The position numbers and the translations under genes are program-made. This document shows positions 1,880-4,909 of a DNA stretch of 6,021 nt, one piece after another. Origin of the DNA: a virus (lineage: Duplodnaviria > Heunggongvirae > Uroviricota > Caudoviricetes); the IMG/VR virus record IMGVR_UViG_2671180758_000013, one strand, 5' to 3'. How positions within the stretch are numbered: the first letter of the stretch is position 1; the number at the start of each line of letters is the position of its first letter. The notes under the pieces are model-generated. The model was not told the DNA's origin, searched no databases, and was given only the letters and a program-made list of their open reading frames with translations.

Positions 1880-2065
1880 TTACTTAATTATGTAATTCAT
1901 ACCCGAACTCTCTGTTGACAGCCTTCTTCTGCAGGCTTCAATAACCCACGCTGAAAAGTTTCCTGAACCTTTCAGATCAAGAGCGATGTTAATTTGTTCA
2001 ATCATCTGGTTTGGAAATCGGATGTTGCGGGTTGTTGTTCTGCGGGTTCTGTTCTTTGATGACAT
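1880..2065 (-). CDS. Small ribbon-helix-helix (Arc/MetJ-like) DNA-binding protein, probably YlcI/YnfO family (DUF3950), 61 aa
   Basis: Minus-strand ORF with ATG (complement of 2063-2065) 5 nt after GGGGAA. Product MSSKNRTRRTTTRNIRFPNQMIEQINIALDLKGSGNFSAWVIEACRRRLSTESSGMNYIIK has a basic N-terminal arm, a beta-strand (NIRFP), helix A, a G-S-G-N turn and helix B, the RHH pattern seen in Arc/CopG. From memory, similar small proteins sit near the cos-proximal right end of lambda and next to the Nu1 homologs of E. coli cryptic prophages (ylcI/ynfO); unverified here. Confidence 0.7.
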   Translation of the reverse strand: MSSKNRTRRTTTRNIRFPNQMIEQINIALDLKGSGNFSAWVIEACRRRLSTESSGMNYIIK

Positions 2066-2122
2066 AATGTTTCCCCATATTCAGTGTTGCTGATTTGTAT
2101 TATCTGAAGTTGCTTTTACGTT

Positions 2123-2164
2123 AATTTGACGCAGATCAATTAATACGATACCTGCGTCATAATT
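2123..2164. repeat. Imperfect inverted repeat (12-13-bp arms, 17-bp spacer), candidate protein-binding site
   Basis: AATTTGACGCAG (2123-2134), 17-bp spacer, CTGCGTCATAATT (2152-2164); the core TGACGCAG/CTGCGTCA is a perfect 8-bp inverted repeat. It lies 60-100 bp upstream of the RHH start codon on the minus strand and about 110-150 bp upstream of cosN. Confidence 0.5.
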
Positions 2165-2220
2165 GATTATTTCTCGTGGTTTGATGGCGTACACACATGT
2201 TGTGATAAACCTTATATAGA

Positions 2221-2235
2221 TGATAATCATTATCA
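2221..2235. repeat. 15-bp palindrome TGATAATcATTATCA in the cosQ-proximal region
   Basis: Perfect 7-bp arms around a central C, about 37 bp upstream of the cosN nick. The flanking sequence ...ccggcgatccgaccggttacg resembles the lambda right end (from memory). Confidence 0.5.
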
Positions 2236-2271
2236 TTTCGTGGGTCCTTTCCGGCGATCCGACCGGTTACG

Positions 2272-2283
2272 GGGCGGCGACCT
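2272..2283 (+). other. cosN: 12-nt cohesive-end sequence (terminase nicking site)
   Basis: GGGCGGCGACCT at 2272-2283 is identical to the lambda cohesive end, flanked by lambda-like sequence (...GGTTACG | GGGCGGCGACCT | CGCGG...), and sits about 190 bp upstream of the Nu1 start as in lambda. Confidence 0.85.
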
Positions 2284-2460: not shown

Positions 2461-3009
2461 ATGAAGGTTAATAAAAAGAGGCTTGCCGAAATTTTCAACG
2501 TGGACCCGCGGACGATTGAACGCTGGCAGTCTCAGGGACTCCCTTGCGCCTCCAAAGGTAGTAAGGGCATTGAATCTGTATTTGATACTGCCATGGCAAT
2601 TCAGTGGTATGCGCAGAGGGAAACTGATATCGAAAACGAAAAGCTCCGCAAAGAACTGGACGATTTGCGTGCGGCAGCGGAGTCAGATTTACAACCCGGC
2701 ACCATTGACTATGAACGCTACCGACTCACAAAAGCGCAGGCAGATGCGCAGGAACTGAAAAATGCCCGTGAAGACGGAGTAGTGCTGGAAACTGAACTGT
2801 TTACCTTCATTCTACAACGTGTGGCACAGGAGATTTCGGGGATACTTGTGCGTGTGCCGTTGACATTACAGCGTAAATATCCGGACATTTCACCATCACA
2901 CCTTGATGTGGTGAAAACTGAAATCGCGAAAGCCTCCAATGTTTCAGCTAAGGCCGGTGAAAACGTGGGCGGGTGGATCGATGATTTCAGACGCGCAGAA
3001 GGCAGCTAA
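2461..3009 (+). CDS. nu1: Terminase small subunit (lambda Nu1 homolog)
   Basis: 182-aa product begins [28 protein letters not shown]... (lambda Nu1: MEVNKKQLADIF...RTIQNWQEQGMP, from memory) and shares [32 protein letters not shown]. The N-terminal winged-HTH region differs at several positions from lambda. Confidence 0.93.
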
Positions 3010-4909
3010 TGCAGCCGGTGCGATAGCTACAGGGCTTTTATCTCTCATTATTCCTGTTCCACTGACGACAGTTCAGTGGGCCAATAAACATTATTACCTT
3101 CCTAAAGAGTCGTCTTATACCCCGGGGCGGTGGGAAACACTGCCGTTTCAGGTTGGCATCATGAACTGTATGGGCAACGATCTGATTCGCACGGTTAACC
3201 TGATTAAATCTGCCCGTGTTGGTTATACAAAGATGTTGCTGGGAGTGGAGGCTTATTTTATTGAGCATAAATCACGCAACAGCCTTCTTTTTCAGCCCAC
3301 GGACTCAGCTGCTGAAGATTTTATGAAATCTCATGTTGAGCCAACGATAAGGGATGTTCCTGCATTGCTGGAGCTGGCTCCATGGTTCGGAAGAAAACAC
3401 CGCGATAATACGCTCACCCTGAAGCGTTTTTCCTCCGGTGTGGGGTTCTGGTGTCTGGGTGGTGCGGCAGCAAAAAACTACCGTGAAAAATCCGTGGATG
3501 TGGTCTGTTATGACGAGCTTTCCTCGTTCGAACCGGATGTTGAAAAAGAGGGTTCGCCAACCCTGCTGGGGGATAAACGTATTGAGGGCTCTGTATGGCC
3601 AAAATCCATTCGCGGCTCGACGCCTAAAATCAAAGGCTCCTGCCAGATCGAAAAAGCCGCTAACGAGTCGGCACACTTCATGCGTTTTTATGTGCCCTGT
3701 CCGCACTGTGGGGAGGAGCAGTATCTGAAATTTGGCGATGATGCCTCGCCTTTCGGTCTTAAGTGGGAGAAGAATAAGCCAGAAAGTGTTTTCTACCTTT
3801 GTGAGCATCATGGCTGTGTGATCCATCAGTCTGAGCTTGACCAGAGTAACGGGCGGTGGATCTGTGAAAACACGGGCATGTGGACCCGTGACGGCCTGAT
3901 GTTTTTCAGCGCCCGGGGTGATGAAATTCCGCCGCCGCGCTCCATCACTTTCCATATCTGGACGGCGTACAGTCCGTTCACCACATGGGTACAGATTGTC
4001 TATGACTGGCTGGATGCACTGAAAGATCCCAACGGCCTGAAAACCTTTGTGAACACCACGCTGGGCGAGACCTGGGAAGAGGCCGTGGGCGAAAAACTCG
4101 ATCACCAGGTACTGATGGATAAGGTTGTGCGTTACACGGCGGCGGTGCCTGCCCGGGTGGTTTATCTGACGGCGGGCATTGACTCGCAGCGAAACCGTTT
4201 TGAGATGTATGTCTGGGGATGGGCTCCGGGAGAGGAAGCCTTTCTGGTGGATAAAATCATCATTATGGGGCGTCCCGATGAGGAAGAGACGCTGTTACGT
4301 GTGGATGCGGCGATCAACAAAAAATACCGCCATGCAGACGGAACCGAAATGACTATTTCTCGTGTCTGCTGGGACATCGGGGGGATCGATGGCGAAATCG
4401 TTTATCAGAGGTCAAAAAAACACGGTGTTTTCCGGGTGCTGCCGGTAAAAGGCGCATCTGTCTATGGCAAGCCGGTGATCACCATGCCAAAAACCCGCAA
4501 TCAGCGGGGCGTGTATCTGTGTGAAGTGGGGACGGACACCGCAAAAGAAATTCTCTATGCCCGTATGAAAGCCGATCCCACGCCTGTGGATGAAGCCACG
4601 TCGTATGCCATCCGTTTTCCTGATGATCCGGAGATTTTTTCGCAGACAGAGGCGCAGCAACTGGTCGCGGAAGAGCTTGTGGAGAAGTGGGAAAAAGGAA
4701 AGATGCGTCTGCTGTGGGATAACAAAAAGCGGCGTAACGAAGCGCTGGACTGCCTGGTGTATGCCTACGCGGCATTACGTGTGTCCGTGCAACGCTGGCA
4801 GCTTGATCTGGCTGTACTGGCAAAATCCCGGGAAGAAGAGACGACCCGGCCAACCCTTAAAGAACTGGCAGCGAAGCTGTCCGGAGGAGTGAATGGTTAC
4901 AGTCGCTGA
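2981..4909 (+). CDS. A: Terminase large subunit (lambda gpA homolog)
   Basis: Long ORF with lambda gpA-like blocks throughout ([124 protein letters not shown]). Start placed at ATG 2981 (MISDAQK...), which gives the lambda-like N-terminal length and a 29-nt overlap with Nu1; the upstream in-frame ATG 2939 is an alternative. Confidence 0.93.

Follow-up and report, generated by a model that had tools for sequence, protein, structure and literature searches.

A cos-proximal DUF3950 gene of an Escherichia coli lambdoid prophage: a known family and a candidate FNR-switched small repressor

Arc and Mnt of phage P22 are small phage-encoded repressors of the ribbon-helix-helix (RHH) type, which are encoded in the immI region and control ant. 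In the Arc-operator complex, residues N11 and R13 contact bases. The lambda morons bor and lom are accessory genes that are expressed in the prophage from promoters of their own, and encode outer-membrane proteins. In the cryptic prophages DLP12 and Qin of E. coli K-12, two further small genes, ylcI and ynfO, lie next to homologues of the terminase gene Nu1; in full-text searches, no paper came up with a function assigned to their family, as an earlier note on the DNA studied here had also held. Here, we analysed a stretch of 6,021 nt from the virus record IMGVR_UViG_2671180758_000013 (the window, i.e., this stretch at its full length), which covers the late-gene junction of an E. coli lambdoid prophage, and within it a 61-codon open reading frame (ORF) on the minus strand beside cos. 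The ORF is a genuine and very common member of the named, uncharacterised prophage family DUF3950 (YlcI/YnfO) and is already catalogued. With regard to its role, we favour a moron-type small repressor switched by FNR, not a packaging factor, and give this overall reading an even chance of being right.

The gene is organised as follows (window coordinates):

1880..2065, minus strand: DUF3950 / YlcI-YnfO gene, 61 codons plus stop, with the ATG at 2065-2063 and the TAA at 1882-1880
Codons 1-49 of this gene: conserved core; codons 50-61: variable, low-confidence tail
2073..2076, minus strand: Shine-Dalgarno-like GGGG, 7 nt before the ATG and kept in lambda, Qin and DLP12

The 61-residue antisense ORF described in the earlier note is thus present as an ATG ORF with the product MSSKNRTRRTTTRNIRFPNQMIEQINIALDLKGSGNFSAWVIEACRRRLSTESSGMNYIIK. 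Its DUF3950 membership, for which the note had proposed a profile search, is borne out by Pfam PF13132, which matches residues 21-49 with E=9e-19 and 67.5 bits, i.e., above the gathering score of 25 bits. NCBIfam NF041551 (YlcI_YnfO_N; 35.2 bits, cut-off 30) and phrog_949 (E=9e-32) match as well, and the RefSeq protein WP_001329960.1, named 'YlcI/YnfO family protein' by PGAP, is 100% identical to the product. In the alignment, the protein fits the DUF3950 family as a single domain of about 55-80 residues with the invariant core I-R-F ... F-S-A-W-V ... C. Homologues are found by tblastn in 155 phage records, and the core together with its promoter DNA occurs in 4174/5426 complete E. coli genomes (77%), with up to 12 copies per genome. 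Since the family is named and the protein already annotated, we file the ORF as already known.

Similar ORFs at the same position, as stated in the earlier note, are found in lambda (NC_001416, minus strand, 48127-48303, with cosQ about 170 bp to the right; the reference record shows no feature at these positions) and in K-12, where ynfO adjoins nohA in Qin and ylcI adjoins nohD in DLP12. The following elements place the window gene with respect to cos:

2242..2248, plus strand: cosQ-like GGGTCCT, identical in the alignment to lambda 48473-48479, the bases assigned to cosQ in the work of the Feiss laboratory
2272..2283, plus strand: cosN cohesive-end sequence GGGCGGCGACCT
2461..3009, plus strand: terminase small subunit (TerS) gene, Nu1-like, divergent neighbour of the DUF3950 gene

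The gene indeed runs opposite to the late operon beside cos, i.e., it is antisense to the lysis-to-terminase genes and lies 177 bp from cosQ and 207 bp from the cohesive end. Compared to YlcI and YnfO, it has the same size, core (residues 1-49), strand, Nu1-homologue neighbour and upstream FNR and Fur boxes, while it differs in its C-terminal tail, in one base of the FNR box and in lacking a downstream DUF1398 gene. Compared to lambda, the terminase module right of cosN is a different one.

We compared 24 distinct core coding sequences in all six frames. The variable sites are distributed over the three codon positions as 9/6/31, such that 31/46 are third positions. For the frame of the ORF, the proportions of synonymous (pS) and non-synonymous (pN) differences are 0.43 and 0.044, respectively, which gives a pN/pS of 0.10 compared to 0.37-3.3 in the other five frames. 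That is, the DUF3950 reading frame is under strong purifying selection, and intact orthologues with 35-60% identity are found across Enterobacterales and in Pasteurella. This bears on the explanation that the frame is incidental, i.e., that the DNA is kept because it serves as a linker for recombination or belongs to an extended cos or regulatory region, and that the peptide is functionless. Such an explanation would account for mosaic breakpoints on both flanks of the core (1931 and 2065) and for the missing annotation in the lambda record, but it is contradicted by a synonymous divergence that is high, with low non-synonymous divergence, in this frame only, and by intact ORFs in other genera, the proteins of which are 35-45% identical and the flanks unrelated. 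The Shine-Dalgarno sequence and the start codon are conserved, too. We consider an incidental frame extremely improbable.

Among the E. coli copies, residues 1-49 are nearly invariant and the tail, which AlphaFold models with low confidence, varies in sequence and length. As the earlier note suspected, the tail found here (STESSGMNYIIK) differs from that of the lambda type (TSEKRAYTSI...). Homology to lambda begins at window position 1931 (about codon 45), and that to phage PPyecE_EH1910 reaches exactly as far as the start codon, at 2065 (breakpoint 2065/2066). Since these mosaic joints bracket the conserved core, the variable tail would be whatever the neighbouring module supplies, i.e., the tails are probably by-products of recombination joints.

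Upstream of the ATG, the minus strand carries the elements of a putative promoter of its own:

2081..2093, unstranded: short palindrome TCAG-N5-CTGA across the putative start, a weak candidate for an autoregulatory site
2099..2104, minus strand: predicted -10 hexamer GATAAT, with a putative start at about 2091-2092 and a leader of about 26 nt
2126..2139, unstranded: FNR-type box TTGAC-GCAG-ATCAA, one mismatch to TTGAT-N4-ATCAA, centre at 2132.5

The FNR box forms the left part of the 2123-2164 inverted repeat and is perfect (TTGATctgcATCAA) in lambda, Qin and DLP12. Along the minus strand, GATAAT (GACAAT in lambda) comes 21 nt after the box, and the GGGG and the ATG about 26 nt further on. If transcription starts 7-8 nt past the hexamer, at A2091, the box centre is located at -41.5, and the geometry would fit a class II FNR-activated promoter. 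We collected 75 lambda-cos-type loci for comparison. The box is present at constant spacing in 75/75 of them (perfect in 51, with one mismatch in 24), and the hexamer reads GATAAT in 47/75 and GACAAT in 28/75. A consensus promoter scan made no call at the GATAAT promoter, which is expected for a promoter without a -35. The short palindrome is kept in the lambda-type loci and missing from the HK97-type context described below.

FNR binding to the homologous K-12 DNA is published: chromatin immunoprecipitation (ChIP-chip) gave FNR peaks at nohA/ydfO and nohB, purified FNR shifted the fragment, and nohA::lacZ fusions showed low activity with almost no FNR effect (PMC1802558). A ChIP-seq study lists nohA among the peaks 'masked by Fur' (PMC3688515). 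Neither of the two FNR papers (PMC1802558, PMC3688515) takes the small gene opposite into account. Since FNR binds but leaves fusions in the noh direction nearly unaffected, the opposite-strand gene would be its natural target. The papers found contain no measurement of the FNR dependence of ynfO or ylcI, and the searchable literature yielded no report on expression in lambda lysogens. In K-12, ylcI is transcribed, and in at least half of the RNA-seq sets it overlaps ybcW in a convergent excludon (PMC12288877), and ybcV, downstream on the ylcI strand, is up about threefold (log2 1.67) under microaerobiosis (PMC8910356). On balance, we lean slightly towards FNR-dependent expression of the window gene. 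As far as the searchable literature goes, it is new that the published FNR site is placed such that it may drive a DUF3950 gene.

Between the gene and cos, a second host-regulator site is found:

2221..2235, unstranded: core palindrome of a Fur box, TGATAAT-C-ATTATCA, with 6 bp between it and cosQ to its right
2200-2227, plus strand: promoter-like site TTGTGA-16-GATAAT, its -10 overlapped by the Fur box

The palindrome (TGATAATCATTATCA) was reached in 0/200 shuffles and is present in 74/75 of the lambda-cos-type loci. The promoter-like site would read through cos into the terminase genes. For K-12, Fur sites have been reported upstream of nohA (22.3 bits; gel-shifted by purified Fur) and of nohB (25.3 bits), and the nohA region had been cloned earlier by Fur titration (PMC2189734). 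A Fur box over a plus-strand promoter-like site could be the reason why Fur has been reported to control nohA and nohB. The position of the box by cosQ also raises the question whether iron limitation leads to terminase expression in the lysogen. The palindromes at 2123-2164 and 2221-2235, which the earlier note had offered as targets of the protein, are therefore better described as a host FNR box and a host Fur box, the homologues of which are bound in K-12. Further right, in the region equivalent to cosB and just upstream of the TerS start, there is a 27-nt inverted repeat (2379-2437, 81% complementary, 5-nt loop), within which a terminator-like hairpin was called at 2414-2433.

The same stretch bears on a second explanation, i.e., that the protein is a packaging-site accessory which binds DNA by cos, or TerS, and modulates cos recognition, cleavage or termination, for instance by shielding the prophage cos from stray terminase. 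In its favour, the gene is close to cos in two unrelated modules, namely the Nu1/A module of lambda and the HNH-TerS module of HK97-like phages. However, the gene is antisense to the late transcript and thus not co-expressed with the terminase genes, and the conserved palindromes between gene and cos are host FNR and Fur sites. Furthermore, lambda packaging works in a defined in vitro system with terminase, integration host factor (IHF) and proheads, without the DUF3950 protein, which counts against this explanation. Its remaining support comes from satellite members of the family, to which we return below.

To characterise the fold, we used two AlphaFold runs (monomer models, from 18 and 93 sequences), which agree on extended residues 1-18, a helix at 19-32, a four-residue G-S-G-N turn and a second helix at 37-53/55. 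The predicted local distance difference test (pLDDT) is 82-88 for the helices 19-32 and 37-53 and for the turn. The extended N-terminal arm is basic; residues 1-18 are of low confidence, which is expected because an RHH strand pairs only in the dimer. Aligned with hhalign, TTRNIRFPNQMIEQINI falls on Arc PQFNLRWPREVLDLVRK, such that N14 and R16 are placed on N11 and R13 of Arc, and the register is right for the Arc beta-strand and helix A (E=0.028, probability 1.8%). Despite this register, the scores of hhalign against single Arc or CopG sequences are unusable as proof of the fold. Below threshold, HicB-like models match with E=0.012-0.016 (a HicB-like PHROG, and the Pfam HicB-like model in 13/93 family members), as does RHH_1 with E=0.24 in 1/93 members. 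Foldseek against the PDB places the RHH proteins HP0222 and AtaR2 at ranks 2-3, and in BFVD most named matches are RHH, Arc, CopG, PutA, AmrZ or NikA proteins; neither result is significant. When all PDB chains were searched with sequence profiles of the family, there was no match or noise only.

Of the RHH signature read from the sequence by the earlier note, the arm, the tight turn and the second helix reappear in the predicted models, and the register agrees with Arc; the profile and fold searches gave no significant match. Taken together, an RHH fold is quite probable. The window protein appears to work most like Arc and Mnt: all are small and phage-encoded, with about 50-60 residues, a basic N-terminal arm, and an x-N-h-R-a-P strand motif (RNIRFP compared to FNLRWP), which is followed, in the window protein as predicted, by a helix, a G-x-x-N turn and a second helix. 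The likeness ends at the level of significant sequence or structure matches, of which there are none, and at the genomic position, which is by cos instead of immI; nor did the searches yield an operator for the lambda-type DUF3950 protein.

We also assessed the distribution of the family. Among 1.84 billion representatives, 183 clusters at 50% identity were found (E<=0.001), many of which are sequencing-error variants of lambda control DNA, and the family is confined to Enterobacterales and Pasteurellaceae. Copies identical to lambda also occur in contigs assigned to Kitasatospora, Cohnella, Brevibacillus, Pedobacter, Flavobacterium and others (L011-L045, many of about 3.5 kb), and hundreds of error-ridden ENA proteins likewise match the lambda-identical region; both are almost certainly lambda control DNA, i.e., the nanopore control strand of about 3.6 kb. 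Four contexts were found: lambda-cos modules, HK97-like modules, satellites and chromosomal copies. In HK97-like modules, the gene of a nearly identical protein begins 41 bp from a divergent HNH gene and lies one gene from cos. The chromosomal copies have no phage genes nearby. One is found in Salmonella enterica between a chaperone-usher fimbrial operon and hsdMS (L160 5001-5174, P0171); the others, from four species of Tatumella (L049, L053, L056 and L067, about 6001-6153), share one locus and lie upstream of a gene for a membrane-transporter-like protein of about 445 residues. The satellite and chromosomal contexts speak for a small regulator of a general kind and against a protein dedicated to binding at cos. 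In Salmonella D23580, the Gifsy-1 gene STMMW_26411 is induced specifically under anaerobiosis and was proposed as an accessory gene (PMC7067206). It was considered as a DUF3950 homologue, but the link to the family could not be made, and P0171, the sole located Salmonella member, is not in a prophage.

Satellites with a DUF3950 gene are found in Pectobacterium, Serratia, Xenorhabdus, Klebsiella, Enterobacter, Brenneria, Gilliamella, Pasteurella (Pmp7) and E. coli. They are P4-like or resemble capsid-forming phage-inducible chromosomal islands (PICIs), and encode a P4-type integrase, AlpA, sometimes AntA, an Icd-like protein and a primase-helicase; the E. coli satellite additionally has TerS and an HK97-type capsid protein. 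Their DUF3950 gene is the sole gene on its strand and diverges from the icd-primase operon. Within the 150-350 bp upstream, a palindrome of 12-14 bp occurs in 2-4 copies, the positions of which are about -123/-100/-77/-30 relative to the ATG:

30-125 bp upstream of the DUF3950 start in L048-L075, L079, L003 and L008: GTG...CAC palindromes

Shuffled controls gave at most two copies, except for Gilliamella (L073), where one shuffle equalled the three copies observed. The conserved CACGTCAA corresponds to the -35 TTGACG of the divergent promoter. Since the palindromes overlap this -35, the repeats straddle both promoters. At fixed positions, the repeat sequence varies between satellites and tracks the residues before I-R-F-P (TTKG, YKG, KKG, KKN ...); for instance, TTKG pairs with GTGyAyAwACAC in five genera and YKG with GTGTTTAAACAC. 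Judged by its anatomy, the arrangement is that of a repressor which regulates itself along with a divergent operon.

Long ORFs of 224-429 aa that run opposite the satellite genes were considered and rejected as artefacts, because the only conserved stretch in them mirrors the DUF3950 core; no Pfam domain was found over the overlap. Along the same lines, the 224-aa coding sequence of Pmp7 labelled 'transcriptional repressor' (L079 3583-4257, OR544138), which lies opposite an unannotated DUF3950 gene, is probably a miscall.

In six proteins, DUF3950 is joined to the N-terminal 50-odd residues of a Terminase_2 small subunit, which are its DNA-binding part (P0247 from E. coli, in 39 contigs, as well as P0201, P0266, P0267, P0271 and P0302). 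The fusion genes (L003 6001-6363 and L004-L008) are next to int and divergent from the primase operon, and in the E. coli satellite a second, unfused DUF3950 gene precedes the fusion. The fused part in L003 is closer to the TerS N-terminus of the adjacent HK97-like prophage than to the TerS of the satellite itself. This satellite is apparently inserted in the terminase large-subunit (TerL) gene of the prophage (L003 8040-8881): all that is left of it beside the satellite integrase is a 93-residue N-terminal TerL-like fragment, and the TerS of the prophage is broken into pieces of 61 and 89 residues. The DUF3950-TerS fusion could be a TerS mimic or a cos-binding decoy. To mimic the DNA-binding domain of the helper TerS is a real satellite strategy, as established for the PICI protein Rpp (PMC6739421). 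Rpp itself was ruled out as a DUF3950 protein, since it is a winged helix-turn-helix protein. The likeness concerns the fusions only, i.e., a satellite-encoded TerS-like DNA-binding domain combined with a separate dimerisation element; Rpp dimerises by a coiled coil and has no DUF3950 domain, and the window protein is without any TerS-like part. Satellite DUF3950 genes with operator arrays and the TerS-domain fusions are both new in the literature that could be searched.

With regard to the packaging-site accessory, the fusions, their resemblance to the neighbouring prophage TerS and the precedent of Rpp are points in favour. This support concerns the fusion, though, and not the window protein, and most satellite copies, as well as those of Salmonella and Tatumella, have no adjoining terminase or cos. 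Together with the antisense orientation and the host sites described above, we regard a packaging function of the window protein as unlikely.

The remaining genes of the window, all late genes, are located as follows:

129-491: lysozyme gene
765-1256: Rz gene
1009-1194: Rz1 gene
2939-4909: terminase large-subunit gene

Between the Rz genes and the DUF3950 ORF, about 600 bp contain small ORFs only; the right end of the window holds a head-tail joining gene and the start of the portal gene. A third explanation is that the protein is an antitoxin-like or partner subunit of a two-gene module, for instance with the DUF1398 proteins YdfO or YbcV, and acts by protein-protein contact. RHH domains are common in type II antitoxins, and weak HicB-like matches were found. 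In addition, ydfO follows 58 bp after ynfO on the same strand, and ylcI, ybcV and borD share one strand in DLP12. A conserved partner is missing, though: neighbours differ among the window, lambda/K-12, HK97-type modules, satellites and chromosomal copies, the window has no downstream DUF1398 gene, and the PADLOC defence models gave no meaningful match. We thus rate a partner-subunit role as very improbable. As an aside on DUF1398, ydfO follows the DUF3950 gene in Qin (L077 3757-4458), possibly in one operon with ynfO, and ybcV is further downstream on that strand in DLP12 (L078 3185-4446); lambdap78 of lambda (47042-47575) occupies the corresponding position and strand.

We return to the favoured FNR-switched repressor. 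The gene would be a moron, i.e., it would have its own promoter and lie antisense to the late operon in the mosaic region from lysis cassette to cos. Position, orientation and mosaic boundaries fit this class; the evidence on expression is indirect and comes from the cryptic prophages of K-12. Like bor and lom, the gene is antisense to the late operon or independent of it, it occupies the same lysis-to-cos tract as bor in lambda and DLP12, and it appears to be deployed as a prophage moron, with host-regulator sites in its promoter. In contrast to the outer-membrane proteins Bor and Lom, its product is cytoplasmic and probably binds DNA. FNR would activate the promoter in the anaerobic lysogen. 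A class II FNR layout implies that the protein would be made by the resident prophage in an anaerobic host, independent of lytic development. The product would then dimerise via its RHH fold, and the dimer would, by analogy with the satellite members, repress one or more promoters in a sequence-specific manner. The likeliest targets would be the promoter of the gene itself and the one at the Fur box, from which transcription would cross cos towards the terminase genes.

The individual steps differ in weight. The gene, its family, its position and the selection on it are shown, as is, by published work on K-12, that FNR and Fur bind the homologous DNA. That the window protein is a DNA-binding regulator seems reasonably probable to us. 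Regulation by an RHH protein near cos, which the earlier note had suggested, gains from the divergent-operon layout in satellites and from the FNR-type promoter of the gene itself, and loses in that the lambda-type region yielded no operator. It is doubtful that the target is the gene's own or a cos-proximal promoter. Since no iterated operator was found and no motif is shared with the HK97-type context, the target is the weakest point of the model.

Several observations weigh against this reading. No RHH profile, solved structure or fold search reached significance, and the beta-strand cannot form in a monomer model. The FNR box of the window with its one mismatch is, taken alone, no rarer than chance (54/200 shuffles), and the transcription start is inferred from sequence. 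Under microaerobiosis, ybcW on the other strand rises as well (PMC8910356). The upstream DNA of HK97-type copies is unrelated, has no FNR box and shares no motif with the lambda type; an 11-mer common to lambda-cos and HK97-type upstream DNA was dropped as a candidate, because it is missing from other HK97-type clusters. A search of the lambda-type upstream region for an iterated operator like that of the satellites yielded none; it brought up only the FNR and Fur elements together with interleaved inverted repeats of 8 bp. Finally, the covariation of operator and protein in the satellites could stem from linkage rather than from recognition.

Taken as found, the ORF matters little: an identical RefSeq entry exists, the family is named and most E. 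coli genomes carry it. The lead is that the lambda reference genome is without annotation of a conserved and selected gene. In addition, the publications on FNR and Fur binding 'at nohA/nohB' interpreted it without regard to the DUF3950 gene, although the FNR site is placed to activate this gene and not the terminase homologue. If the FNR reading is true, lambda and hundreds of lambdoid prophages, including Shiga toxin (Stx) phages, would possess an oxygen-responsive lysogenic gene, and a widespread group of phage satellites would gain a candidate repressor. The findings on promoter, operator arrays and fusions make an old lambda 'DUF' directly testable. A joint reading, which is speculative and as a whole rather unlikely, would see DUF3950 as an unrecognised class of RHH repressors of Enterobacterales mobile elements. 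In satellites, they would act as master repressors that hold the icd-primase operon off via iterated GTG...CAC operators, and the TerS fusions would couple this switch, or packaging interference, to the terminase of the helper. In lambda-like prophages, the repressor would be under FNR control in the anaerobic gut and would, together with Fur, silence cos-proximal transcription into the terminase genes. If this were true, phage lambda itself would carry an unannotated, environmentally regulated lysogeny gene.

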